DNA from: Octopus vulgaris
Taxonomy: Eukaryota
Direction: 5' to 3'
DNA length: 64,000 nucleotides
Assembly: GCA_951406725.2 (NCBI GenBank)
Contig: OX597819.1
Location: 8,804,001-8,868,000, forward strand
Part shown: positions 13,401 to 57,925 of the stretch, piece after piece
How the letters are laid out: every line of letters starts with the position of its first letter
Numbering within the stretch: position 1 is the stretch's first letter
Position numbers and translations under genes: made by a program
Notes under the pieces: model-generated
Database searches by the model: none
Seen by the model: only the letters and a program-made list of their open reading frames with translations
What the model was told of the DNA's origin: nothing

Positions 13401-13929
13401 AAGAAAGAAAGAGAATATAACAGGTTTCATTCTGTTTCCGTCTTCTAGCCTACTAAATCCATTCTCAAGGATCTTAATGGACTGCAATAGTAAAAGTCAT
13501 TTACCTAAGGTACGCAAACTTCTTTCTACATAACCACACCTAGGTGCTCGTTTAAATTTTATTTACTCGCAACTTTCGACATCAGGAGAATTAGGGATAT
13601 TTTGCTTTGAGACAACAGTTTGAAGCAGTCCAAATCAGTAAATTCTTACGAAGTCAACATTACAAATTTTTACCATGAAAGTCTATTTAACAAATATTTC
13701 TAATTACGCGAAGGAATGAGAAAGAAAAAAAATTCTTAATAGTTGTATGTAGCCTAGCATTGTCTAACAAAATGGCTGGACCTAGTAAAAGTGCTGAGGA
13801 GTGTATAGGCATTTCACATCACATGTCATTACTGTAGGGAAAACTTAATGAAGTAAATTTTCATTTTATTTACGTATAGATACAGATATACCGCAATAAT
13901 TATTAGTAAAATGTTGTATTAACTTCTGT

Positions 13930-15420
13930 AAGCACAGGTCCAGCTCGGGGTGGCATTGTCATTGATATACTGCATCTCATGGGCTGAGATGGGCGGAGGT
14001 CCTCGTCTTTGCGTGGAGATGTGCGAGATTGAAGAGTCCAGTGGGATTTCGTTGGGCATGGCGGCCATGTACAAAAAGAAACAGGCGGGCACATGTCAGT
14101 TGTGCCTCGAAAGAGTCGAAAGCCACATTGGAACTCAAGGAAGACGCTTTCCGCGAGGATGAGGAGGTGACTGAGTAGGATACGGGCGAAGATATTGCTT
14201 GCAATACTCAGGATTGAGATGCCCCGATAGTTGTTGCAATCCTCTCGGTCTCCCCACTTGTGGATGGTGATGATAGTTGCATCACAGAAGTCGTTCGGAA
14301 GGATTTTGCTTACCCAGTTCTTTAGAATAACGGGCGTCAGATGATTTCCCAGCTCAGGACCTCCGTGCGTTAATAACTCAAACGGGATGTTGTCTGACTC
14401 CTGGTGCTTTTCCCGGATTCATGCGCTCGAATGCCGTGTTGAGCTCATGGGGCAGGGCCATCCAATGGTGGATGGGGAGCTGCGAGGGGGGTTTGTAGTG
14501 TGTAAGTGGTCGTTAAGTAGGCTCTCGTAATGCGACTTCCAGCGATCGAGGTTTCCCTGGGTGTCGGATATCGTAGAGCCAGCTGCGTTCTTCAGGCCAC
14601 CCACTGATGACCTTCTGGGTCGAAGATCTCCTTGGTTGCTGCACAAAAGCGGTGCAAGTCTCCTTGGTCCGCACAGTTTTGCATCTCCTCTGCTTTTCTC
14701 TGCCACCAGATGGTCTGAGCTTCTCTAAATCCCCGCTTCCTTTCTGCTGATGCTTGTTGGTGTTTTTGTTTGTAAGAAGGCGGTGATCCGTCCAGCAGCC
14801 ATCTGCACCAGGCAAGGAGCGGGTGATGCGTACATCTCGTCCATCCTTGGAGTCTGTCAGAACGTAGTCGAGGATGTGCCGGTGTTTAGACCGTGGGTAT
14901 TTCCAAGTCGTCTTTTGTCGGGTAGGGAGACGAAATAGGGAGTTGGTGATGACGACTTTGTGCTCGGCGCAAGGGCCCAGGAAGAGCTGGCTATTGGCAT
15001 TACATTTCCCAATGCCGTTCCACAGGCAATGGCCACTACCGACTCTGCCGTTAAAGTCCCCCAACACGATGAGTTTGTCATGCGCGGGGACTGTCTGGGT
15101 GGTGCGGTTCAGCAGACTGTAGAACGAAGCCTTGACGTCGTCTTAAGATAGGAGGGTAGGGGCGTACACAGAGATCAGCGTAAGGTGTCTGTCCCGAATG
15201 AGCGGGACCCGAACAGTCATCAGGCGCTCGCTGACAGCAGTTGGGACGAGTCTGTATTGATCCTCGAGTTTCGTTTTGATGGCAAGGCCAGCTCCAAGAA
15301 TGCGTAGCTCGTTAGGATTCTTTCTCCTCCAAAAAATGTGTTTGGAGCCAGCTTCTCTGATGCTGCCTTCTCCGGGAAGCCTAGTCTCGCTATTAATCAC
15401 GACAATTGTTTCGACACTCT
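13930..15420 (-). mobile_element. Decayed RTE (BovB-like) LINE: APE endonuclease plus start of RT
   Basis: Motifs SETRLPGEGSIRE, SERLMTVRVPL...TLISVYAPT, LGDFNGRVG, GIGKCNAN, TTWKYPRSKHRHILDYVL, CWTDHRLL spread over frameshifted ORFs 15143..15400 and 14513..15067; downstream NYRGISIL-like sequence. Confidence 0.88.
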
Positions 15421-17840: not shown

Positions 17841-18078
17841 GTGTGATAAATAAAATATATGCATACATACAAACATATATGTACGTACCGACATCTACAT
17901 GTATATATACATGCATATATAAATATATATACGTACAGGACACCACAAGAAGACGTAAAAATCAACCTTCTTGTGGTGTCCTGTACGTATATATATTTAT
18001 ATATGCATGTATATATACATGTAGATGTCGGTACGTACATATATGTTTGTATGTATGCATATATTTTATTTATCACAC
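17841..18078. repeat. Perfect inverted repeat, 112-nt arms with 14-nt spacer, in a (TA)n-flanked element (~17837-18177)
   Basis: 17841-17952 is the reverse complement of 17967-18078. Confidence 0.95.
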
Positions 18079-20130: not shown

Positions 20131-20333
20131 ACGGGAAGCTTTATGAAAATAAACAAAAGACGAAGGCAGGTGGAATACAAACAAACAATTGTATTAGTAT
20201 GGCGCTCAAGAATATAAATAAAACAAGTCTTTTACGTTTCGAGCCTACGCTCTTCAACAGAAAGATACACAGAAAAGAAACACGGAGAGAAACAAGGAAG
20301 AAAAAAAATGCGTGCAGAAGCTAACGAATCAAC

Positions 20334-20335: not shown

Positions 20336-20382
<47 letters not shown>

Positions 20383-20459
20383 TTGAGTTGTGGGGTATCG
20401 CACGAGTGGGATTATATAAGAAAAAAGGTTTGAAAATGCAATTTAAACGATGTTTATTT

Positions 20460-20500
20460 ACTTAACCGGTTTCACTCTTTGGTAAAAGATTGTCAAAAGT
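20460..20500 (-). ncRNA. Hammerhead-like motif (U3:A8 variant) near the PLE 3' end, left arm
   Basis: actt TTGACAA tcttt-tacc-aaaga gt GAAA ccgg TT aagt; two extra nt before GAAA make it atypical. Confidence 0.5.
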
Positions 20501-20520
20501 TACATTTAAGGAAACATTGA

Positions 20521-20745
20521 ATAATATGGGTTCAAAAAAAGTTTTTTACATAATTGTCACATTGAATATTATGCATTCAAAAAAGTTTTTTACATAATTG
20601 TCACATTGGATATTATGGGTTCAAAAAAAGTTTTTTACATAATTGTCACATTGAATATTATGCATTCAAAAAAGTTTTTTACATAATTGTCACATTGGAT
20701 ATTATGAATTCAAAAATGTTTTTTTATACATAATTGTCACATTAT
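20521..20745. repeat. ~44-nt tandem repeat x5 in the left PLE arm (x4 in the right arm, ~27058-27240)
   Basis: Unit atattatgcattcaaaaaagttttttacataattgtcacattg. Confidence 0.9.
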
Positions 20746-21306
20746 TTGGGAAAATTTGGCAGAAAAGGATAAAACAAATATATTATTGGGAATTGGTTGC
20801 GTTAATTATTGGTTGTCGCAAATTGTCACATTACATGTATATATATACAATCTTTGGTATATATATACAGCGTTTTGACAGCAAAAATTAAAATGGCTTT
20901 TTTGTACATCTCAGAATATTTTAAGTATGTTTTTACTGACCTGTCAGTATTAGCAGAAAGGCTGAACTGAGAGAACAGAAGAAGTAGCCAATGTGGTGTA
21001 TACTTCCCCTTTATGCATGAATGATTTTGGGGTTATCAGGAGGTTAGTATGCGGGTGTGAATAGATGTGTCCGTGCCTGCTGGTCAGACAGCGTCTGTTT
21101 GTCACACACATATATATACACACAAACACACACACACACAACAACACACACACACACACACATAGTATACAAACACACACCACATACAAACAACACACAC
21201 ACACACAGAACACACACACCCACACACAACGCACCCACATATATCACATATACACACAGCACACAAATATAACATGTATCTATATATAACATACACAGAT
21301 ATATAA

Positions 21307-21363
<57 letters not shown>

Positions 21364-22159
21364 CACACGCACACATACATACATAATATAAATATCACAC
21401 AAATACACCTAGCATATATATACACACATACAATACACACATACAGCATGTAAGTAATATATATACACAATATATGCATGCAATATACATACGTAATACA
21501 TACATATAATATATATATATATAGACAATGCATATACATATATACACATATACATATAAATAGTGTTTACATACACATACATAGATGTACCACATATACA
21601 CACAACACACATACATACAATGCATACACATACACATACGCATACATATAATATATATATACACACACACACACACATAACATACATACACACACAATGC
21701 ATACATATATATACACGCAATGCATATACATGTATTCATGCACATATAACACACCTACAATATACATATATACAGTGCACACATACACACAAATATATAC
21801 ACTTAATTGTACACGTACATATACAATACACATACATACAATATACATATACACAATGCGCATGCAAATAATGTACATGTTTATACACACATAAACATGC
21901 AAATAAATATACACACACATACATACACACACACACATATATATACACATATATATATATATACACACATACATACATACATACATGCACATACATATAT
22001 TTTTTCACACACATATATATATATATAAAAAATTCATCACCCCCCACACACACAAATTACAAACCTATAGCGTACACACTCAAATATATCTCTACATGCC
22101 GCACATACACACAAACAAAGTACTAACATATACACACATACCATGCATATACACACACA

Positions 22160-22204
<45 letters not shown>

Positions 22205-22377
22205 CAGATACATATGTAAATACATACACACGTACACAATGCTCACACACACACACACACACACATACACACACACCCGCACACAGTGCACACACACACA
22301 CACATATATACACACGTGCACACACACACACACATACAACGCGCGCACACACACATATACACACACACGCACACAGT

Positions 22378-22417
<40 letters not shown>

Positions 22418-22602
22418 CACTCACACACATACATCACCTACATATATATAATGCATGCGTGTGCATGCCACGTATGTGTGCGGTCAATGCCCGCTAGTGT
22501 GTCCTATGCGTGCCGATGCGCGCATGTGCCCGCCCGCACGATATGCTGTGAGCGTGCGCGCGTCCCTGTGTGCTTGCTCTGGATGTGCTTCCAGGGGGTA
22601 TG

Positions 22603-23260
22603 TTAGAGTATGTTTAGTTGTGGTCTGTATTTTTGAATAAGATTACTTTCCTTATTTATTCGTGTTTGGTCTGTGGTGTTGTCCGAGCATTGGTATAGTG
22701 GGAAGACTAAGAATTTGGGGGACTTATTGTGTGCACAAAGGTCTAAGTGTCCACTTAGTGGTATCTGTCTTGTGGAGGGGTCCCTCAGTTGTTGTCGGTG
22801 AACTGTCATTCTGTCTCTGAGGGTAAGGCTCGTTTGCCCTATGTAGTCTTCGTGGCATCCTTCACACCTTATGACGTAGAGTAAATTTTTTGATGCGCAC
22901 GTGAAGTTATTTTTTATGATGAATGTGTGTCCCGAGTGGAACTTGTACGACGATCCCTCAATGAGGTGGATGCAGGTCTTACAGTTGGGGCGACCACATT
23001 TTTTGATGGTGGGCGGTGGGTTTGTGTTGTGTAATTTTGCGTTGGTGAGGAGGTTTTTTAGGGATTTAGGTTGTCTCTTACTTTTTATTATTTTATGAGC
23101 TGCCAGTATTTTTTTCAGGCGTGGGTCTTGATTTAGTTGTGGAATGTTGTTGTATATAATAGTGTAAGCTTCTGCATTCCTTGGGTTGTGTGTTGAGAGA
23201 TAAGGGAGGCTATTGACTGTACTGTGGATGTGTTTGGGTTTTCGAAGGTCTTGAATATTG
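22603..23260 (-). CDS. PLE Cys-rich linker + GIY-YIG endonuclease (frameshifted continuation of the RT ORF)
   Basis: Hand translation: LPYLSTHNPRN...SKRQPKSLKNLLTNAK...CGRPNCKTC...FTCASKNLLYVIRCEGCHEDYIGQT..TLRDRMTVHRQQ...RINKESNLIQKYRPQLNIL*. Confidence 0.88.
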
Positions 23261-24875
23261 ATTTGGCCCGTTCTATTCCGTTGTCTACTAGTGATACCGG
23301 GTAATGTCTTTCGAGAAGAATTGCCCTTAGTTCCCGGAGTCTTCTATTTCGTGTTGTGTCATTTGAGACAATAGTGCAGATTCTTCTCGCTAGGTTGAAG
23401 GGGATATTTGTCTTTGTGTGTTTTGGGTGATTGGAGGTGAATAGAAGGTATTGTTTGGAGTCAGTGGGTTTGTAATGGATGTCAGTTTCAATGTTGACGC
23501 CTTTTTTAATGATTAGGATGTCAAGAAAAGGGAGTTGGTCCTGACTATATTCCATTGTGAATTGAATGTTGTTATTTACACTGTTGATAAGGTTTTTGAA
23601 GTCTATAAGTTGGTCGAGTGTGTGGGACCATAGGATGAGGCAATCATCTAAGTAGCGTTTCCAGTTCTCCAACAGGTATTTGTGGAAAGACTGGCCGTAC
23701 TTATATTTGGATTTTTCATAGATATGTGATTCCAGGTAGGCCATCACCAGGTTTGCATAGGTAGGTGCAACTTTCGTACCCATTGCAGTCCCTGAGACCT
23801 GTCTGTAAGTGTTGTTGTGGAAATACATGAAGTTGTTTTGCAGAATAAATTTGAGGCCCTCAATTATGAATTCTTTTTTAATTCTTTCCGGGATCTCATT
23901 GGGATATTTATCCAGCCAGAATTTAATGGCTTCCAGTCCAAATTCATGTGGGATTGTGGTGTAAAGATTAATAACATCAAAAGAAACGATTAAGGTGTCT
24001 TTATCGGCATGTTTGGGGAGATGGTTTAATAGGTCCAGGTCATCTCTTACAATACTTGGAATGTGTTTCAGTATTGGCTTTAAGATGATATCTATAAAGT
24101 TGCTAAGTCTGTGTGTTTCACAACTTGGGCCTGCCACTATTGGTCTCAGTTTGAGATCAGTGGGATGTGGTATAGTGATGCAGGTTGAAGTGGACTTTTT
24201 GCAAGCTTCTGTGATAATTTGACTCTTGTGTATTTTTGGAAGCCCATAGAGTGTGCTGGTTTTGCAATTAAATTTAGTAATGTAGTCGCATTCCTTTGCT
24301 GTCAAGTCATTCCGGTGTTGGTAAATGAGTGCCTTCAGATTGGTCATTGTTTTGGATTGCTGGTAGTCGACTACTCTTTCGTAGTATGTGGTATCCTCTA
24401 AAAGGAGAGATACAGAGTTTTTATACTGCTCAGTATTCATAATAACGACCGTACTACCCTTATCAGCTTCCTTTATTGTGACGTCATGAGTGTCTCGTAG
24501 CGTATGGATGATTTCCCATTCTCTTTTACTGGTGTTGGGTTTGAGTTTAGGTTGTGGGAGTTCACCATAAGGGAAGTTGGAGATGTAATCGCAAAATTTG
24601 TCTAAGGTTTTGTTTTTGCCTTTTATGGGATTATAGTTGCTTTTGTTACAGACCATTGATTCGTCGTTATTATTAGTTTTTCTGTCAAAAAATTCCTCTG
24701 TGAGGCGTAATTTTCTGCAAAAGTGCGAGATGTCATCCTGTATTTCCCTCAGGTTAGGGTATTGCGGAGTTGGGGTGAATTTTAGTCCTCTTGAAAGGAT
24801 TTTTATTTGTGGTGTCGACAGGTTTAGGTTAGAAAGATTCACTATTTTTGGTTTTTCGGGGTTGGTATCTACCAT
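23133..24875 (-). CDS. PLE reverse transcriptase
   Basis: 580 aa with IKEADKG, LYGLPKIHK, LRPIV, SFDVINLYT, GTAMGT..APTYANL, RYLDD, LPFLD, YKPTDSKQYL..SNHP; the last ~40 aa are out of frame after a frameshift near 23260. Confidence 0.95.
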   Translation of the reverse strand: MVDTNPEKPKIVNLSNLNLSTPQIKILSRGLKFTPTPQYPNLREIQDDISHFCRKLRLTEEFFDRKTNNNDESMVCNKSNYNPIKGKNKTLDKFCDYISNFPYGELPQPKLKPNTSKREWEIIHTLRDTHDVTIKEADKGSTVVIMNTEQYKNSVSLLLEDTTYYERVVDYQQSKTMTNLKALIYQHRNDLTAKECDYITKFNCKTSTLYGLPKIHKSQIITEACKKSTSTCITIPHPTDLKLRPIVAGPSCETHRLSNFIDIILKPILKHIPSIVRDDLDLLNHLPKHADKDTLIVSFDVINLYTTIPHEFGLEAIKFWLDKYPNEIPERIKKEFIIEGLKFILQNNFMYFHNNTYRQVSGTAMGTKVAPTYANLVMAYLESHIYEKSKYKYGQSFHKYLLENWKRYLDDCLILWSHTLDQLIDFKNLINSVNNNIQFTMEYSQDQLPFLDILIIKKGVNIETDIHYKPTDSKQYLLFTSNHPKHTKTNIPFNLARRICTIVSNDTTRNRRLRELRAILLERHYPVSLVDNGIERAKSIFKTFENPNTSTVQSIASLISQHTTQGMQKLTLLYTTTFHN

Positions 24876-24974
24876 CTGGTGTCGTGGAAACTGATGCCCT
24901 TGCCTAAAAAAGGAATCCTGGGGGTTCTTCTATTTGCGGTATTTTGCTGTATGTGATTCTGTCCCCCGTTGACA

Positions 24975-25408
24975 GAAGACTACATAGGGCAAACGAGCCT
25001 TACCCTCAGAGACAGAATGACAGTTCACCGACAACAACTGAGGGACCCCTCCACAAGACAGATACCACTAAGTGGACACTTAGACCTTTGTGCACACAAT
25101 AAGTCCCCCAAATTCTTAGTCTTCCCACTATACCAATGCTCGGACAACACCACAGACCAAACACGAATAAATAAGGAAAGTAATCTTATTCAAAAATACA
25201 GACCACAACTAAACATACTCTAACATACCCCCTGGAAGCACATCCAGAGCAAGCACACAGGGACGCGCGCACGCTCACAGCATATCGTGCGGGCGGGCAC
25301 ATGCGCGCATCGGCACGCATAGGACACACTAGCGGGCATTGACCGCACACATACGTGGCATGCACACGCATGCATTATATATATGTAGGTGATGTATGTG
25401 TGTGAGTG

Positions 25409-25458
<50 letters not shown>

Positions 25459-25606
25459 GTGCGCGTGTTGTATGTGTGTGTGTGTGTGCACGTGTGTATA
25501 TATGTGTGTGTGTGTGTGCTGTGTGTGCGGGTGTGTGTGTATGTGTGTGTGTGTGTGTGTGTGAGCATTGTGTACGTGTGTATGTATTTACATATGTATC
25601 TGTTTT

Positions 25607-25647
<41 letters not shown>

Positions 25648-26429
25648 TGTGTGTGTATATGCATGGTATGTGTGTATATGTTAGTACTTTGTTTGTGTGT
25701 ATGTGCGGCATGTAGAGATATATTTGAGTGTGTACGCTATAGGTTTGTAATTTGTGTGTGTGGGGGGTGGTGAATTTTTTATATATATATATATATGTGT
25801 GTGAAAAAATATATGTATGTGCATGTATGTATGTATGTATGTGTGTATATATATATATATGTGTATATATATGTGTGTGTGTGTATGTGTGTGTGTATAT
25901 TTATTTGCATGTTTATGTGTGTATAAACATGTACATTATTTGCATGCGCATTGTGTATATGTATATTGTATGTATGTGTATTGTATATGTACGTGTACAA
26001 TTAAGTGTATATATTTGTGTGTATGTGTGCACTGTATATATGTATATTGTAGGTGTGCTATATGTGCATGAATACATGTATATGCATTGCGTGTATATAT
26101 ATGTATGCATTGTGTGTGTATGTATGTTATGTGTGTGTGTGTGTATATATATATTATATGTATGCGTATGTGTATGTGTATGCATTGTATGTATGTGTGT
26201 TGTGTGTATATGTGGTACATCTATGTATGTGTATGTAAACACTATTTATATGTATATGTGTATATATGTATATGCATTGTCTATATATATATATATTATA
26301 TGTATGTATTACGTATGTATATTGCATGCATATATTGTGTATATATATTACTTACATGCTGTATGTGTGTATTGTATGTGTGTATATATATGCTAGGTGT
26401 ATTTGTGTGATATTTATATTATGTATGTA

Positions 26430-26479
<50 letters not shown>

Positions 26480-27337
26480 GTGTGTGTATGTGTGTTATAT
26501 ATCTGTGTATGTTATATATAGATACATGTTATATTTGTGTGCTGTGTGTATATGTGATATATGTGGGTGCGTTGTGTGTGGGTGTGTGTGTTCTGTGTGT
26601 GTGTGTGTTGTTTGTATGTGGTGTGTGTTTGTATACTATGTGTGTGTGTGTGTGTGTTGTTGTGTGTGTGTGTGTTTGTGTGTATATATATGTGTGTGAC
26701 AAACAGACGCTGTCTGACCAGCAGGCACGGACACATCTATTCACACCCGCATACTAACCTCCTGATAACCCCAAAATCATTCATGCATAAAGGGGAAGTA
26801 TACACCACATTGGCTACTTCTTCTGTTCTCTCAGTTCAGCCTTTCTGCTAATACTGACAGGTCAGTAAAAACATACTTAAAATATTCTGAGATGTACAAA
26901 AAAGCCATTTTAATTTTTGCTGTCAAAACGCTGTATATATATACCAAAGATTGTATATATATACATGTAATGTGACAATTTGCGACAACCAATAATTAAC
27001 GCAACCAATTCCCAATAATATATTTGTTTTATCCTTTTCTGCCAAATTTTCCCAAATAATGTGACAATTATGTATAAAAAAACATTTTTGAATTCATAAT
27101 ATCCAATGTGACAATTATGTAAAAAACTTTTTTGAATGCATAATATTCAATGTGACAATTATGTAAAAAACTTTTTTGAATGCATAATATTCAATGTGAC
27201 AATTATGTAAAAAACTTTTTTTGAACCCATATTATTCAATGTTTCCTTAAATGTAACTTTTGACAATCTTTTACCAAAGAGTGAAACCGGTTAAGTAAAT
27301 AAACATCGTTTAAATTGCATTTTCAAACCTTTTTTCT

Positions 27338-27343
<6 letters not shown>
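24975..27343 (+). repeat. Inverted copy of the PLE 3' region (GIY-YIG C-terminus + long 3' UTR/pLTR)
   Basis: gaagactacatagggcaaacgagcc at 24975 is the reverse complement of 22827-22851; the ORF track shows mirrored identical peptides. Confidence 0.95.
27256..27296 (+). ncRNA. Hammerhead-like motif (U3:A8 variant), right PLE arm
   Basis: Mirror of 20460-20500. Confidence 0.5.
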
Positions 27344-41752: not shown

Positions 41753-42125
41753 ATCTTTAACTTCATTCTCATGTTTCTTACTCACCGCTCATCCTTCTCC
41801 TCTACCTACTTCACTTCTTCTCTGTTTCTTTCTCCCACAAACTCTCTACATCACTCTTTCCCTTTTCCCTTTCTTCCATTTCTAATATACTTCTCAGTTT
41901 ATAGATTTTAAACAACACTAGCCTTTTCTTCCACCAATTTTCTTTCCCAATTTTTACTCTCGCATAGCTTCTCGTCTTTTAACGTTCACCTTTTTTCTCT
42001 CTCTTTACCTACCTATGCATGTATGTATGTATGCATGTATGTATGGGGAGCTTTATGAAAATAGACAAAAGACAAAGGCAGGTTTACGGAAATAAACAAA
42101 AGACGAAGGCAGGTGGAATACAAAC

Positions 42126-43254: not shown

Positions 43255-43643
43255 TCTCTTTTTACTTGTTTCAGTCATTTGACTGCGGCCATGCTGGAGC
43301 ACCGCCTTTAGTCGAGCAACTCGACCCCGGGACTTATTCTTTGTAAGCCCAGTACTTATTCTATCGGTCTCTTTTTGCCGAACCGCTAAGTGACGGGGAC
43401 GTAAACACACCAGCATCGGTTGTCAAGCAATGCTAGGGGGACAAACACAGACACACAAACACACACACACACATACATATATACGACAGGCTTCTTTCAG
43501 TTTCCGTCTACCAAATCCACTCACAAGGCATTGGTCGGCTCGGGGCTATAGCAGGAGACATTTGCCCAAGATGCCACGCAGTGAGACTGAACCCGGAGCC
43601 ATGTGGTTGGTTAGCAAGCTACTTACCACACAGCCACTCCTGC

Positions 43644-43646
<3 letters not shown>
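43255..43646 (-). mobile_element. SINE family A
   Basis: Identity to other copies. Confidence 0.9.
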
Positions 43647-44390: not shown

Positions 44391-44417
<27 letters not shown>

Positions 44418-44419
<2 letters not shown>

Positions 44420-44830
44420 ACTAATATAGGATAAAATTTTTCGAAAAGAATTCTATCAATGGCCAACATATTAAGAAATACCTTTACGGTTAAATTAATA
44501 AACAACTTATAAACAAGGGAAAAAGAAAAAAATTCTAATGCCTAATATGCCGAAAATAGACTTAAATCGTCAATAACCATATAATTCATCACTATAGGCA
44601 CGCGTCTCGAAGTAAGCCGACAGAAATTTCAAAAAGATTCCGTTATTATCGTATCGGCCCCGATTTCAGAGTTAATTCATAAGAATTTTCTCCTCGTCAG
44701 CGATAAATACAGTAAGAAATAAAGGAAATACTTACTTATACCCATGGAAAAAGCAAGCACTCAGTCCTGTGTACACTTAAGTACCCTAAATATATACAAA
44801 ATAGAAATGTTTTGCCCTTGTTTATAAGTT
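44418..44830 (-). mobile_element. (TA)n-flanked HHR-containing element with a short inverted terminal segment; partial second copy 50729-50913
   Basis: 44810-44830 is the near-perfect reverse complement of 44504-44524; contains the HHR at 44646-44706. Confidence 0.7.
44646..44706 (-). ncRNA. Type-I hammerhead ribozyme (canonical core)
   Basis: ttatcg CTGACGA ggag-aa-aattc-ttat-gaatt-aa-ctct GAAA tcgg-gg-ccga TA cgataa; all three stems pair. Confidence 0.85.
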
Positions 44831-44879
44831 ATATATCTATATATGTACACTTTATTAATAAAGCTGCAAGGACATCACA

Positions 44880-44925
44880 AAAACTGTTGCTCAGAGTTTC
44901 ACGTTCCCGTTCGTCGGACAGTTTT
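44880..44925 (-). ncRNA. Hammerhead-like motif, left arm (degenerate)
   Basis: aaaactgt CCGACGA acg-ggaa-cgt GAAA ctc-t-gag CA acagtttt; U4C and U16.1C changes. Confidence 0.55.
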
Positions 44926-44968
44926 GACTGATTTGAACAGCATGTAATGCCGAAAATACAGCTTAACC

Positions 44969-45014
44969 AAAACTGCCCGACGAACGGGAACGTAAAGCTC
45001 TGAGTAACAGTTTT
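44969..45014 (+). ncRNA. Hammerhead-like motif, right arm (degenerate)
   Basis: aaaactgc CCGACGA acg-ggaa-cgt AAAG ctc-t-gag TA acagtttt; GAAA is mutated, TA site intact. Confidence 0.45.
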
Positions 45015-45104
45015 TGTGATGTCTTTGCAGCTTTATTACTAAGGCAATTTAGCCTACCTCCGGCATTTTTCCCACCTTGCTTCACATATATATGCTTATT
45101 CTGG

Positions 45105-45146
<42 letters not shown>

Positions 45147-45380
45147 GCAAAAACAATTAAGATTCAAGTGAATTCCAATGAATTCAAATGAATATGGTAC
45201 TTAACTTAGATGCACCAGAATGCATCTCTCTAGGATGTCTGGAAAACATATATGTGATTTAGCTGATGAATACTGGACATTTGTATTTGCTGCAATATTT
45301 GTAGCTTTAAATAAAATTGTTCTTAATATGACACAATTGTACTAAACTACTAATCCATTCTTGTTGCTTTTTTCTCTTGG

Positions 45381-45471
<91 letters not shown>

Positions 45472-45589
45472 GAAATAAGATGTCACTACTGTTGATATCA
45501 TCATATATACTGTAGCGGTAAGTATTCCCTTCTGTCAAGGAGGAGTCCGGGATACAATCTCCTGCCGAGAAGGCTCGCAATCTTAGGTG

Positions 45590-45980
45590 AATGCGTAGCT
45601 GTGTGGTTTGAAGCTTGCTTCCTAACCACAAGGCACACAATTCGGTCCCTCTGTGCAGCATCTGCACCTTGAACAAGTGTCTTCTGCTATAGCCATGCGC
45701 CGAGTGAATATTTGAGTGAATCTGGTGGATGGAAACTGAAAGATTGCAACGACAACCAGCTGGAGGAGGCTCTTCCTCAGGTGAAAAACGGTAGTAAAAC
45801 GAAATGCTTGTGTCTGTATTTGCGTTTTTCCTCCATCTACTGCTTGACAACTGATGTTGGATTGTTGATGCCCCTGTAAATAGCATAAAACGTAAGTACT
45901 GGGTTTAATTTATTCTTCAAGAGCAGCGCTCCATAATGGCCGCAGTCTAATAGCTAAAACAAGTAAAAGGTAAAAGTAAA
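45590..45980 (+). mobile_element. SINE family A, old/diverged
   Basis: gtagctgtgtggtttgaagcttgc...ccttgaacaagtgtcttctgctatagcc...aagtaaaaggtaaaag. Confidence 0.7.
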
Positions 45981-45982
45981 GC

Positions 45983-46017
<35 letters not shown>

Positions 46018-46113
46018 CGGGAAGCTTTATGAAAATAAACAAAAGACGAAGGCAGGTGGAGTGCAAAAAAACAATTGTATTAGTATGGCGCTCAGGAATA
46101 GAAATAAAACAAG

Positions 46114-46151
46114 TCTTTTACGTTTCGAGCCTACGCTCTTCAACAGAAAGA
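46114..46151 (-). ncRNA. Minimal hammerhead-like motif, second copy of 20228-20265
   Basis: Identical 38-nt motif. Confidence 0.55.
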
Positions 46152-46470
46152 TACACAGAAAAGAAACACGGAGAGAAACAAGGAGAGAAAAAAAATGCGT
46201 GCAGAAGCTAGCGATTCAACATGGCGATCTGATTCCGGCCAGAAGTCAGAGATCAGACGTGAGAGCGAAAGTTGGGGAGATAACAGGGTCAAATGACTTC
46301 GCCCCAACATAAGGGTGTGTGTATGTATGAGAGAGTATGTAGTGCGTATGAAAGGTCTGGACGTGTGTACGTATGTATGATGTGATGTGTAATGTCGTAT
46401 GGTGTAGTGTAGAGAGAGGAGATGATGGGTAGAGAGTGAGACATACATACATACATACATACTTCTATAC

Positions 46471-46501
<31 letters not shown>

Positions 46502-46736
46502 GACACACAAATACGCACATACATATATTTTGAAAGATAAATATAACGATTTACATATCTATTTACATATCTGTCAGTCTGTCAGTCTGCCTTTTCGCCC
46601 GTATGGCGTCTGTCTACAGGTCTATACTTTCCAGCGTCTGTTTTATGTCTGCGGACTCTTTCTTTCTATTTTCCTCACTCTTTCCTTCGAAACATTTTCA
46701 CGCCTCCTCCAAACTTCTTCCTTACACTTCTTTTGC

Positions 46737-46785
<49 letters not shown>

Positions 46786-46831
46786 CAAAGAAGTGTGCCT
46801 CCTCCAAACTTCTTCCTTACACTTCTTTTGC

Positions 46832-46899
<68 letters not shown>

Positions 46900-46901
46900 C
46901 A

Positions 46902-46935
<34 letters not shown>

Positions 46936-47440
46936 TTAATCTCATTTCATCATTTTAACTGGACTGAACGATAAGGCATCTTGCCAAATATCAATCTTAA
47001 TGGGTAACCTTTAGCATTCTTTTCTAAGAGAAGGAATATTTAAATACTAGGGTTTCTCTATATTCCATGGTATGATATGAGGGATTTGCTTCTGATGGAT
47101 GGTTTCCAAATTCCATTTGCACGAACAATATTTGCTCCTTTCACCATCTCTGGTCATCTTCTACTGTGGTGAAGTCAGCATCTATCATTTCAATGTGTGA
47201 AAAAAAAAATGCTTTCTCTCTCTATCTTCCATGATGCACATATTGGTTTCTAAATATTCTTCTTCTTTTACCAGATTATATTTTAAAGTTTACAACACCT
47301 TTTCTTCCATCATAACCACTACTAACACCACCATTTCTGCTATTACAAACAAAACCTCCAATGATGATGCTAATGAGGAGGAAGAGGAGGAGGCGAATGA
47401 GTAATAAGAGAAGGAAGATGAGGAAAAGGAAAAGGAAAAG

Positions 47441-47723
47441 TATCAGGTCATCCCATAGGTTCTGTCCGATTTTACCTTTTTAAAATTTGAATGAAATTTG
47501 ATAGTATTTTGGAATGTTTAAAGGAATTAAAAATTATTTTTATGCATTTGTGTACATTTAGGCGCAGGAGTGGCTGTGTGGTAAGTAGCTTGTTTACCAA
47601 CCACATGGTTCTGGGTTCAGTCCCACTGCGTGGCACCTTGGGCAAGTGTCTTCTACTATAGCCTCGGGCCGATCAATGCCTTGTGAGTGGATTTGGTAGA
47701 CGGAAACTGAAAGAAGCCCATCG

Positions 47724-47760
<37 letters not shown>

Positions 47761-48100
47761 GTGTGTGTGTGTCTATGTTTGTCCCCCTAGCATTGCTTGA
47801 CAACCGATGCTGGTGTGTTTATGTCCCCGTCACTTAGCGGTTCGGCAAAAGAGACCGATAGAATAAGTACTGGGCTTACAAAGAATAAGTCCCGGGATCG
47901 AGTTGCTCAATTAAAGGCGGTGCTCCAGCATAGCCGCAGTCAAATGACTGAAACAAGTAAAAGAGTAAAGAGTATTTCAACTAATTAAATATTATTTTAC
48001 AGAATGATAGAATTAAAATTTCTTTGATTAAAACCCTTTCTAACATGGAAGTATCCAAAGAACATTTGAGGCATATAGAAAAATCTGAAAATTCAGAAAA
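47441..48100 (+). mobile_element. Mariner-like 5' remnant interrupted by a SINE family A copy (47560-47972 +)
   Basis: TIR-like tatcaggtcatcccata; atggaagtatccaaagaacatttgaggcatata encodes MEVSKEHLRHI; the SINE itself is high confidence. Confidence 0.55.
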
Positions 48101-48251
48101 ATTGTAACACATGCGTAGTTCCGGGTTCAGTCCCACTGCTTAGCCCCTTGGGCAAGTGTCTTCTACTATAGCCTCGGGACCAATCAGAGCCTTGTGAGTG
48201 GATTGATGTTGGGAAGCAAGCTTCTTACTACACAGCCACGCCATGTATTAC

Positions 48252-48838
48252 ATGCTAGGCTACTGGTTTTAAATTGATTTAATTAAATCAATATTCAATT
48301 TATCACCCTCATTATTTAAATTTTAAATAATTATGTTCTCTAACCGGCAACATTAACTGCAGTGAATTATCTACTGCGGAACTGTTTCCGGGATTTAGCG
48401 CGCCAGAAAGTAGACATTTGAAAATAACCCCAATGTAATCAGTAGAACTATACAGACATCTAATTTTATGAGGACAACTCGTGTATAGTTCTATAAATTA
48501 TATTGAATTGGAACGATCGTACTGACGAGTCCACGGACGAGAATTACGTAAGTAAATATCGTTAATTGGCGAAATCTGTCTACGATTAATTCTGTATTTT
48601 GTATATTTTCATCTGTCTTACCCGCTTTTGTTCTGGTGTTTGCTGAATTTCTGTAGAGAACATTCTTTTCTTTGTAGTTAGATCGTAGATGATCTTCTTC
48701 TAGCATATTGGATGTCCAGTGAGTGGTCATCGCTTACTATACGCATGTATTTTTCTGGATTTTCAGATTTTTCTATATGCTAGGCTACTGGTTTTAAATT
48801 TTATGTTAATTAAATTAATATTCAATTTATCACCCTCA

Positions 48839-48845
<7 letters not shown>
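48252..48845 (+). mobile_element. HHR-containing element with ~67-nt terminal direct repeats (period ~525 nt), retrozyme/pLTR-like
   Basis: atgctaggctactggttttaaatt...tatcaccctcattattta at 48252-48318 and 48777-48845; followed by (TA)n. Confidence 0.75.
48516..48586 (+). ncRNA. Type-I hammerhead ribozyme with long stem II
   Basis: atcgta CTGACGA g(t)cca...acga-gaa-ttac-gtaa-gtaa-ata-tcgt...tggc GAAA tctg TC tacgat; stem I is 6 bp perfect. Confidence 0.75.
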
Positions 48846-48891
<46 letters not shown>

Positions 48892-48919
48892 AAGATAGAT
48901 ATGTGTGCATGTATGTATG

Positions 48920-48958
<39 letters not shown>

Positions 48959-49136
48959 TAATAAATATTAGGGAATAAATCCAAATTTACATGGAAAAAA
49001 TCAGATTTAGGATTAAATCCAATTTTATAGTAAAATATTATATAATATTAATTCGAGACAAAACCACTATTTTGCAAAACAAACAAGGAAAGACTTAATC
49101 AATACATAAAAATTTTTAATATAAAGAAATAAACCG

Positions 49137-49179
49137 CCACTACAATCGTTTCATGTTTTCAATGACATTCGTCAGGTGG
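49137..49179 (-). ncRNA. Minimal type-I hammerhead ribozyme, left arm
   Basis: ccac CTGACGA atgt-cattgaaa-acat GAAA cgattg TA gtgg. Confidence 0.8.
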
Positions 49180-49221
49180 ATTTTCGATCTCCTAATCTGT
49201 TTTAATTAGGAGATCGAAAAT

Positions 49222-49264
49222 CCACCTGACGAATGTCATTGAAGACATGAAACGATTGTAGTGG
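49222..49264 (+). ncRNA. Minimal type-I hammerhead ribozyme, right arm
   Basis: ccac CTGACGA atgtc-attgaa-gacat GAAA cgattg TA gtgg. Confidence 0.85.
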
Positions 49265-49363
49265 CGGTTTATTTCTTTATATTAAAAATTTTTATGTATT
49301 GATTAAGTCTTTCCTTGTTTGTTTTGCAAAATAGTGGTCCAATTAATATTATATTTAATATAA

Positions 49364-49421
<58 letters not shown>

Positions 49422-49453
49422 CATATATATATACACATATATACATACATATA

Positions 49454-49861
49454 TGCCGTAATCTCTTTTATAGAGACTTAGTAATTTTAATATTTCTATT
49501 ATTGAAAACAAGTGGATGTATTCCACTGAAACTAGGTAAATAGAAACCTTCGAACAGAGACGTCAGTGGCGACACCTGCGGGGTCTGACTGCGCTACATT
49601 GACAAGGGGCAATAACCCCGAAACGCGTCTGTAGCTGTCGGACTAGCAGTGTGAAGCGGCTTACCTCCCTTGTTCGAAGGTTATAATGGATACAGATCGT
49701 GTATCAATAGCTATCTTAAGGCGGTGGCCTCATGGAGCTGACCAGCGGCAGCGATTATTCTTATATCTATAAGAATGCCATATTAATATGGCGATAACAA
49801 TTAATTTCCAGTAAACGCTGCCGTAATCTCTTTTATAGAGACTTAGTAATTTTAATATTTC

Positions 49862-49867
<6 letters not shown>
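49454..49867 (+). mobile_element. Retrozyme-like element: 365-nt monomer plus 49-nt perfect terminal direct repeat, between (TA)n tracts
   Basis: tgccgtaatctcttttatagagacttagtaattttaatatttctattat at 49454-49502 and 49819-49867; central HHR. Confidence 0.8.
49593..49635 (+). ncRNA. Type-I hammerhead ribozyme, U3:A8 core variant
   Basis: gctaca TTGACAA gggg-caataa-cccc GAAA cgcg TC tgtagc; all stems perfect, palindromic ACGCGT stem III, GUC cleavage triplet. Confidence 0.85.
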
Positions 49868-49920
<53 letters not shown>

Positions 49921-49927
<7 letters not shown>

Positions 49928-50245
49928 CAAAATGGGACAAGAACGCAAAACATCCGGACAGCTAGGTGATACAAAAAGGGACAACAAAACATCCAGATAG
50001 ACAATACAAAGAAAACAAGGACGTGTCATTCGAAGTTTTCTTTCCTCAGTCAAGCACTAGATTATCCTGGCAATTTCCGCTGATTGTTCTTAAGATTGCT
50101 CAAATCTGGCCAGCCCCAAGGAAAAACTAAGCTAAGAGCGTTAGATTCCTTGGAAGAAAGCAGCGGATGTATACAAAAACAAGGACGGAAAAAAACGGAC
50201 AATGTTACACAAATATAAAAACAATAAAAAATACAATAAAAATAT
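49921..50245 (-). mobile_element. Unclassified (TA)n-flanked element, probably another PLE 3' end
   Basis: Same context as its neighbours; T-rich minus-strand tail; only a degenerate HHR-like trace. Confidence 0.4.
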
Positions 50246-50279: not shown

Positions 50280-50505
50280 GTGTGTGCGTGTGTGTGTTTG
50301 TCCGCACTCCCTGCCATCACTTGACAACCGATGCTGATGTGTTTATATCCCTGTTATCTAGTGGTTCGGCAAAAGAGTCCGATAGAATAAGTACCAGGCT
50401 TACAAAGAATAAGTCTCGGGTTTGATTTCTTCGACTAAAACCCTTTAAGGTGGTGATCCAGCATTGTCACAGTCAAATGACTGAAACAAGTAAAAAGTAA
50501 AAGAA
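50280..50505 (+). mobile_element. SINE family A, 3' half
   Basis: cttgacaaccgatgctg...gactgaaacaagtaaaaag. Confidence 0.8.
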
Positions 50506-50564: not shown

Positions 50565-51379
50565 AATTACAAGGTAAAAGGTTGACAGTGACTTCGAAAT
50601 TTCGGCTCATCTACCTCATTAGGTCGTGTTAAAACTTCTTGGAAGTCATTTTCAGTTTCGTAAGAATACTTGATCGGATCAACTGGAACCCTCGTCATCG
50701 TAACCGATGGAGTTCCACGATATATATATAACTAATATAGGATAAAATTTTTCGAAAAGAATTCTATCAATGGCCAGCATATTAAAAAATACCTTTAAGG
50801 TTAAATTTATAAACAACTTATAAACAAGGGCAAAAGAAAAAAATTCTAATGCCTAATATGCCGAAAATAGACTTAAATCGTCAATAACCATATAATTCAT
50901 CACTATAGGCACGCTCGAGTGAGAGAGAAAGAAAGAAAGAAAGAAAAATATAGGAAGGAAGGAAGGAAGGAAGGAAGGAGTGATGCTGGTTTAATAATAA
51001 TAGCTGAACGATAATACCTCGGTATAACATTCCGCCTACTAATTTATGCAATTTTGTGAGTTAAAACATTCCATTTGAGATTGTTGTTGCAATCAGATGA
51101 CAAATACTATCCCCAGAGATATTTAAATTCTAAAAACTACAATTAAGCAAGTCACGTGCAATAATCAAAAAACAAAAAAACAATGTAGTTATGTATGGAT
51201 ATTGTCTGAAGAGCCAACTGGTGAAAGCAACATGCAGATTTCGATCTTCTTAATTCTCATCTGCAAGGCATATAGAGAGAATATTCTTGTCGTATCAATC
51301 AGTTTCTCGTTGCTCGCGTCTAGATAGTTTCTCGGGACGTCGTTATTTCTAGTAGTTGTCTCTTTTTGCCATATATTCA

Positions 51380-57113: not shown

Positions 57114-57847
57114 GGAAGAACTAGGCTATATTACTTTATGAGTGTAGTTGTGCGAAACCTCTCACCAGCAACCATATTTCCTGAAATGGAGAAGGGTCGA
57201 ATAAGGGGCTAGCTACTTGTTCTCTTTTAAAAATTAATTCACTCCCGAAACCATCCAAAACCGAAGTGCAGGATAAGCGTGGATCTAAAGTCGAGAATAA
57301 AAATATAAACCTTCGTTTGAGAGGAGCTGTGGTTGAAACTTAAGAACGGCGAAAACAGTTTGTTAGTTTGTTCATTTGTTTGGAGTTTAGGGGGGAGTTC
57401 TTATTCGACATATTAATATGGAAAATGAATCGCCTTCAAATCAACCGATATCAACTTGGTCTTGGTTAGGCTATATTTCGAGGCAAAAGCAAAAAGAATA
57501 TAGAAAAGATTTTTACTGCAACAATTTGATCCCAGAGCTCCGGCTCAAACAGAACTGCCCTAAAAACAATAATCACTTCGCTCGTGGTTGTATTTCGACC
57601 ATCGTTCTTCATTCTCATACACCTCTATTATCATTCACCTGTATTTTCTCTTTTCTTTCTTCTTGATAGACTCAACTTTATTCATTGCTTCCGCTTTGAT
57701 TTTCATTCATATTTATTTCTTCATAGTTTTCTCATCTTATTCAATTAAATTATTGCTGTTTACTTAACATATTTGACATTCTCACTCAAATTTGTTCTCT
57801 TTACTCTCCTTCATCATTCATTCGTACCTGTTAATTTCATTATTTTC

Positions 57848-57905
57848 ATATACGCATTTATACTCACGTTTACGTATACGTAAACGTGAGTATAAATGCG
57901 TATAT
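57848..57905. repeat. Perfect 58-bp spacerless palindrome
   Basis: atatacgcatttatactcacgtttacgta|tacgtaaacgtgagtataaatgcgtatat. Confidence 0.95.
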
Positions 57906-57925
57906 AGGAATACACACACACACAT

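Follow-up and report, generated by a model that had tools for sequence, protein, structure and literature searches.

The question raised by this locus is why so many hammerhead-ribozyme-like motifs, from families with no mutual sequence likeness, lie side by side in a short region of the Octopus vulgaris genome. The window, which is the whole stretch of 64,000 nucleotides (nt) that was analysed, comes from a genome of 2.8 Gb, and the region studied spans positions 44418-50245. A first-pass annotation had described this region as a dense hotspot of unrelated, probably uncatalogued ribozyme mini-elements. The motifs are real and lie at the positions given there. They are carried by six separate insertions with the anatomy of Penelope-like elements (PLEs), and these insertions probably lie together because all of them go into (TA)n tracts by means of the enzymes of Neptune-type PLEs. 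The families are real, high-copy PLE-type hammerhead families that belong to kinds already described in published accounts (PMC4209133, PMC7229834, PMC8557442, 10.64898/2026.07.22.740005), so they are not of a new kind. The stack itself is the tail of an ordinary genome-wide process and needs no special explanation.

Hammerhead motifs and the insertions that carry them

Motifs were sought with a type-I descriptor consisting of the core CUGANGA or its U3-A8 form, stems I and II, and a stem III that is palindromic or a hairpin. Without a core mismatch, four matches were found in the region (44646-44706(-), 49137-49179(-), 49222-49264(+) and 49593-49635(+)), versus none in 100 local dinucleotide shuffles (mean 0.0, maximum 0). 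When one mismatch is allowed, 46114-46151(-) is added, giving five matches versus a shuffle mean of 0.02. No match to the descriptor was obtained for the copies at 44880, 44969 and 48516, but their families include other copies that fit it. All eight motifs of the first-pass annotation are thereby borne out, with the one at 48516 confirmed as a family member and its stem II redrawn (Table 1). In the genome at large, a strict motif occurs about once per 100 kb (6-7 in 600-kb samples vs 0-3 in their shuffles), which extrapolates to about 27,000 strict motifs genome-wide. The motifs of all six families are type-I hammerhead-shaped sequences.

The eight motifs are assigned to six high-copy repeat families (A, B, C, E, G and H), and they amount to six insertions rather than eight because the pairs 44880/44969 and 49137/49222 are each the inverted arms of a single insertion. 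The arms of the second pair form a 134-nt inverted repeat and are 99% identical. The insertions form two clusters that lie about 1.8 kb apart, with other sequence in the interval. The claim that the families are unrelated in sequence and have other genomic copies was confirmed. A first look at the genome gave 4305 candidate places for A, 1417 for B, 2016 for C, 4107 for E, 1087 for G and 2221 for H, as well as 3302 for a further repeat next to H (family I); 40 places were scored per family, and these counts are not copy numbers.

Three of the families, A, E and H, resemble non-LTR retrozymes, G and B are short linear elements, and C is a truncated autonomous element. Non-coding head-to-tail units of 473, 525 and 364 nt with one type-I motif per unit make up A, E and H, respectively, and each of these families enters its own next unit with no reading frame in between. 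All three were scored as having retrozyme-type units, which by definition are non-coding tandem repeats of 150-500 nt that each contain a single type-I motif. Their units are strongly self-paired, with folding z-scores versus shuffles of -7.4 (H), -6.0 (E) and -4.2 (A); no better folding than in shuffles was found for G, C, I and the pseudo-long terminal repeat (pLTR) of the intact PLE family N1 discussed below. H is young, with copies that are 95-99% identical, arrays that reach 4.7 units and inverted arms that end near unit position 350. In the H array of 4.7 units (L357), six units, including the inverted arm, have 9 variant columns in common. H sequence is also present in contigs from a run labelled as a second species, where 30 of 30 bins are covered (contigs only).

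G is a linear element of about 260 nt with a fixed 5' limit, as none of 29 copies found with a 3'-end query reaches beyond about 41 nt upstream of the core. The whole motif and the upstream sequence are kept in 27 of these copies, an inverted arm is present in 23, and four copies have one junction in common. B consists of short inverted pairs and resembles G, and no tandem unit was seen among its copies, which were sampled with a palindrome query alone and are biased by that query. A fixed palindromic master for G and B was considered and rejected, since the junctions differ among copies and the outer ends are fixed.

The first-pass annotation had taken all families for mini-elements. This does not hold for C, which derives from an autonomous Neptune-type PLE and represents its 3' end after 5' truncation. 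Of 24 C loci, 8 have matches to reverse transcriptase (RT) and endonuclease upstream in the sense orientation, as do 9 of 11 extended loci, the latter picked partly for such matches. The upstream frames are broken and contain the linker CSRPRCRTC between RT and endonuclease. Four different elements separated by TA tracts had also been proposed between 48.25 and 50.25 kb. TA-rich tracts do lie between E and G, between G and H and between H and I; the left end of E adjoins a repeat resembling a short interspersed nuclear element (SINE) rather than a TA tract. The fourth element, family I (49920-50245), is not a hammerhead element by the descriptor, which found no match in 20 of 20 copies with one mismatch allowed. 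A look-alike in family I, CUGAGGA...CGAAU without stem I, is no valid hammerhead; copies of this family (L327-L345) often lie beside H or G, and some extend further upstream.

Insertion into (TA)n tracts

After de-duplication, 176 of 207 loci from the six families were kept. In 152 of these, (TA)4 lies within 30 nt of an end, versus 10.8% of 5000 random point pairs. The flanks contain 56 insertions of other families, versus 8.8 expected from 60 evenly spaced 10-kb stretches (600 kb), and 19 of these neighbours are at most 150 nt away, mostly across a TA tract. Expressed per end, another family lies within 150 nt at 19 of 352 ends and within 100 nt at 22 of 1234 TA-tract sides, the two counts using different windows. 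Both the targeting of (TA)n and the serial insertion into common TA tracts, as proposed in the first-pass annotation, are thus supported. The clustering test was positive by homology where it was not with the descriptor alone, which gave 5 strict matches in 377 kb of flanks versus 6 in 600 kb of random sequence and hence no clear enrichment. In the retrieved DNA, which is biased to the searched families, 22 context clusters were seen. According to Poisson models for 2.8 Gb, a genome of this size should contain about 15-180 clusters with three strict elements in 5.8 kb; therefore, the spot is not special, and the reading as an exceptional hotspot is not supported.

An intact Neptune-type element and the anatomy of the insertions

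A search of the genome for GIY-YIG endonucleases gave 148 matches, many of them in open frames of 781 codons. Locus L246 (432-5670; G000:C16:20834932-20840170) is an intact, young autonomous Neptune-type PLE with two open reading frames (ORFs), and it represents family N1. It has an ORF1 of 346 amino acids, a frame of 765 amino acids with RT, a CxxxxCxxC linker and GIY-YIG, pLTRs of 454 nt and TA ends. Its assignment to Neptune is by motif, and the linker is present in both Neptune and Nematis (PMC8557442). The order of RT, CX2-5CxxC linker and GIY-YIG is intact in N1 and can be followed in C through the broken upstream frames. Many copies are about 98% identical and have the 781-codon open frame, and with its protein as the query, 561 RT/GIY-YIG relatives were found. 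Among 17 copies examined, a (TA)n end is present in 16, a 40-nt tail in 4 and an inverted arm that stops at the inner end in 2. The pLTR has a hammerhead core of the U3-A8 type. No region family has sequence in common with L246, and this element is therefore regarded as the type of the helper and not as a proven helper.

The small families have the same, PLE-type anatomy. Each family has two fixed outer ends, the tail end and an inner AU-rich end, and its inner junctions are specific to the copy; in G, 22 of 23 inverted arms end at reference positions 166-171 with varying junctions. Partial tandems, inverted 5' arms, a 3' tail on one arm and TA flanks are all seen, and these are the traits of non-autonomous PLEs with a microsatellite target. 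The 3' ends of the insertions lie 103-267 nt beyond the predicted cleavage sites. Nor is there a pile-up of 5' ends at the predicted site: in H, 2 of 28 independent insertions begin within 10 nt of it, and in G, 1 of 29 begins just past it. The ends of the inserted copies are not determined by cleavage. Since cleavage followed by ligation leaves no trace, this mismatch does not show inactivity in the tandem families. For the non-tandem G, the RNA that serves as the template is mostly uncut.

A near-complete Neptune-type PLE is also present in the window itself (20376-27338). Its RT/endonuclease frame lies on the minus strand (24929-22603), contains one frameshift and is 52-59% identical to the L246 protein. 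The element has an inverted arm from about 24960, a CA-rich untranslated region and a tandem repeat of 44 bp, and near 20455-20500 it contains a degenerate hammerhead-like core of the U3-A8 form. A C copy (20131-20331) follows the element across a TA tract. Elsewhere in the genome (L297/L298), an H copy lies within the reading frame of another PLE, the matches of which resume after H, so this copy is outside a TA tract.

Core variants and stem covariation

The cores of A, E and G are canonical, and H has the U3-A8 core. In A, CUGANGA is present in 26 of 28 copies, and the cores of G and H are kept in 60-62 of 62 and 54-55 of 55 copies per position, respectively. In B, core position 4 is C in 26 of 36 copies, with T there at the rate of CpG decay at position 7. 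In C, core position 6 is U in 44 of 45 copies and never A, and position 7 varies (T 28, C 6, A 6, G 5). The position-7 classes of C are sub-lineages about 75% alike, and the independent changes are few, perhaps four or five. An alternative register for the C core (UUGAAGA) was rejected because stem I then fails. As C4 and U6 are variant cores, B and C are described as hammerhead-like rather than as certain members. Tentatively, they may be natural active core variants, or PLE hammerheads may be retained because their fold serves the retrotransposon protein, and not for cutting. The conserved U6 of C beside a variable position 7, the C4 of B and the insertion ends away from the predicted cleavage sites are new details.

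Covariation of the stems, proposed as a check on the motifs, was found between the region families and sister subfamilies of H, A, G and B. The sister subfamilies are 72-90% identical to the region families and were chosen by BLAST and shown only if the descriptor passed, a selection that favours paired stems. Between H and L040 (89%), one pair is changed in stem I and one in stem II, together with the palindrome of stem III, and between H and L163 (75%) all three stems are likewise changed on both sides. Compensatory changes are present in stems II and III between A and L247 (79%) and in stem II between G and L258 (90%), and B and L220 differ by a paired insertion in stem I. No compensatory change was seen in the stems shown for C. 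Further hammerhead families with canonical cores and a stem II of 40-61 nt were observed at L134, L053, L055, L163, L224, L254, L258 and L059.

Proposed explanation and its alternatives

In the proposed explanation, a GIY-YIG endonuclease would nick (TA)n on both strands, and the RT would prime at two fixed AU-rich sites of the RNA, the tail end and the inner end, one for each target strand. Both cDNAs would then run toward the 5' part of the RNA and join head to head at a copy-specific point, resulting in inverted pairs. The TA tracts left on both sides of each insertion could serve as targets for renewed insertion. A, E and H would likely be copied from circular or multimeric RNA, as non-LTR retrozymes are, and the RNAs copied for G and B would likely be short and linear. 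Any cleavage by the hammerheads would take place in dimers that form through the palindromic stem III.

Several results weigh against this explanation. The random sample is small, with 13 family insertions in 600 kb and none of A, B or E, and the enrichment factor for neighbouring insertions is therefore rough. No sequence homology of A, B, E, G or H to pLTRs was found in 50 PLE loci, which represent part of the PLE families of the genome, and the matches seen there are neighbouring insertions. The only hammerhead in the region that is directly tied to an RT frame is that of C, and stem I of the motif in the intact PLE is weak, with 3-4 bp. Four of five multi-unit H loci have only 1-4 shared variants and are uninformative on the template. 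With Rfam models, none of 54 matches in the region at E<=10 is a hammerhead. In the Rfam scan of the whole window, there was also no hammerhead among the matches listed (best 150 of 210). Finally, as only one of nine predicted dimers was cleaved in Xenopus (10.64898/2026.07.22.740005), activity cannot be assumed here.

That the motifs are chance matches in AT-rich repeats is extremely unlikely. Shuffled 600-kb samples do yield up to three strict matches, and Rfam is silent; nevertheless, the 100 shuffles of the region gave none, the cores are kept family-wide and the stems change in compensation, and these results refute a chance origin. The view that ribozyme elements have a special, selected or functional hotspot here is also very improbable. 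It draws on three independent strict-core elements in 5.8 kb, with no further one in the remaining 58 kb of the window and a background of about one per 100 kb. Against this stand the number of such clusters expected in a genome of this size, the many other loci at which different families adjoin and the private damage to three of the window motifs. It is somewhat less improbable, yet still unlikely, that all six families simply derive from autonomous PLEs as 5'-truncated pieces of their pLTRs and have no non-autonomous existence of their own. This holds for C, and most single minimal hammerheads have been attributed to truncated PLEs (PMC4209133). It is already contradicted for A, E, G and H: A, E and H continue head-to-tail into their own unit, and G ends about 41 nt upstream of the core in its 3'-anchored sample (n=29). 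Furthermore, in none of the A, B and E loci searched do the 1.5 kb upstream contain an RT match in sense, and the RT matches near H and G that were inspected or placed belong to separate or interrupted elements.

A more serious alternative, though still the less probable side of the question, is that the motifs persist because their fold is a signal to the PLE protein and that these families can do without cleavage. It would account for the U6 of C, held across sub-lineages in which position 7 takes all four bases, and for the C4 of B with T at the rate of CpG decay; A6C and U4C lower activity in vitro (PMC3088659). Retention of the whole motif in nearly all G copies, 3' ends far past the predicted sites and the spread of family I without a detectable motif point the same way. 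On the other hand, the remaining core, the C3-G8/U3-A8 covariation and the palindromic stem III are kept, as catalysis by dimers requires. In addition, low-activity cores can suffice in vivo according to the same study (PMC3088659), and cleaved RNA could be re-ligated without a trace at the insertion ends. Insertion into (TA)n by Neptune-type PLE enzymes remains the preferred explanation of why the six insertions lie together.

Comparison with known systems

Minimal PLE hammerheads have been described with palindromic stem III, U3-A8 cores, an extra base, opposite-strand pairs and thousands of copies per genome; their activity as dimers is low, and the supplement includes examples from Lottia and Crassostrea (Cervera & de la Pena 2014, PMC4209133). 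The octopus motifs are like these in their short palindromic stem III, the U3-A8 swap and the extra base before stem II, as well as in the many families per genome, the opposite-strand pairs and the mostly single dispersed copies. They differ in that several families have a stem II of 26-60 nt and A-U or G-U at 10.1-11.1. An octopus entry was not found in the text of that supplement, nor were the U6 core of C and the C4 core of B found in the passages of that source consulted. In the literature consulted, no cephalopod catalogue and no U6 or C4 core was found; entries of this sort may exist in Lunse et al. 2017, in repeat databases or in some of the supplements. For hammerheads with A6C and U4C, low in vitro activity has been reported (PMC3088659).

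The study that defined non-LTR retrozymes in animals described 16 motif families in a single coral as well as circles in a mussel (Cervera & de la Pena 2020, PMC7229834). A recent preprint derives retrozymes from pLTRs in vertebrates and reports the in vitro cleavage of one of nine dimers in Xenopus (Li, Clavereau & Pollet 2026, 10.64898/2026.07.22.740005). A, E and H resemble such retrozymes as non-coding head-to-tail units of 364-525 nt with strong self-pairing that occur alongside PLEs. They differ in having mostly 1-2 units that are dispersed and TA-targeted, with a PLE tail and an inverted arm, and minimal motifs instead of canonical loop-loop ones. G, B and C are not tandem units. For PLEs of the Neptune clade, a tail, an inverted arm, a (TA)n bias and the linker have been described, and the role of the ribozyme was called unclear (Craig et al. 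2021, PMC8557442). The octopus elements agree with that description in the CX2-5CxxC linker, the C-terminal GIY-YIG, the pLTRs, the 5' truncation, the inverted 5' copy, the 3' tail and the microsatellite bias. The tails of the small families are about 55-100 nt, in contrast to the 30-40 bp described there.

Both the role of the PLE hammerhead and the mover of animal retrozymes are stated as open in the sources cited. The young, retrozyme-like H carries the full PLE integration signature and has the same (TA)n target as an intact, multi-copy Neptune-type element. At the level of integration, this case supports mobilisation by PLEs in an invertebrate and stands next to the phylogenetic argument made in the preprint (10.64898/2026.07.22.740005). 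If the reading of the cores is true, the U6 lineage of C has kept a non-A6 hammerhead through about 25% divergence, and B has spread with C4 as a non-autonomous family. Whether cleavage matters can readily be tested on the conserved U6 core. As families with a canonical core (A, E, G), with the U3-A8 core (H, N1) and without a motif (I) occur together with an intact helper in one genome, the role of the PLE hammerhead is directly testable; bench work would be most worthwhile on the conserved U6 core and on the mismatch between cleavage sites and insertion ends.

Layout of the region and other repeats in the window

Table 1. Insertions, hammerhead motifs and TA tracts in and next to the region, in window positions
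Feature	Position	Strand	Description
(TA)n tract	44391..44419	.	At 3' end of family A
Family A	44420..44836	-	5'-truncated copy of 473-nt non-coding tandem unit, with short inverted stub (~44806-44836)
Motif of A	44646..44706	-	Type-I hammerhead; core canonical, stem III palindromic
Family B	44852..45095	+	Single insertion; inverted arm 44852-44926, sense arm from ~44950
Motif of B, inverted arm	44880..44920	-	Privately damaged
Motif of B, sense arm	44969..45009	+	Privately damaged
Family C	46016..46440	-	5'-truncated 3' end of autonomous Neptune-type PLE; 3' end on (TA)n tract
Motif of C	46114..46151	-	Minimal hammerhead; core CUGUNGA (U6), extra A before stem II, 2-nt stem III
Family E	48249..48848	+	One 525-nt non-coding unit, with ~75 nt repeated at 3' end
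Motif of E	48515..48587	+	Type-I hammerhead; stem II ~43 nt, GAAA at 48571-48574; stem III palindrome damaged in window copy
TA-rich tract	48844..48954	.	E to G
Family G	48955..49365	-	Linear element of ~260 nt; sense arm from 49204 to 48955, inverted arm without last ~80 nt
Motif of G, sense arm	49137..49179	-	Canonical core
Motif of G, inverted arm	49222..49264	+	Canonical core
TA-rich tract	49367..49454	.	G to H
Family H	49455..49864	+	364-365-nt non-coding tandem unit, with 45 nt repeated
Motif of H	49593..49635	+	Type-I hammerhead; U3-A8 core swap; predicted cleavage after 49629
(TA)n tract	49865..49921	.	H to I
Family I	49920..50245	-	TA-abutting high-copy repeat; no descriptor-positive hammerhead in part examined

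Further fragments of families A and C are present in the window at 50731-50914 and 42045-42123, respectively. The A fragment and the copy at 44420 both follow the 3' end of one and the same other repeat, with a TA tract in between. The SINE-like repeat, putatively an octopus SINE, is very abundant, with about 80-90 matches per position in the 600-kb sample, and it occurs in the window at 47560-47975, 43500-43645 and 50310-50500. On the minus strand at 13903-15142, pieces of a frame with endonuclease and RT of the long interspersed nuclear element (LINE) type were recognised, as judged from the translation alone. Other TA-flanked palindromes are located at 17917-18002 and 57839-57914 and may be inverted-pair insertions of further families.

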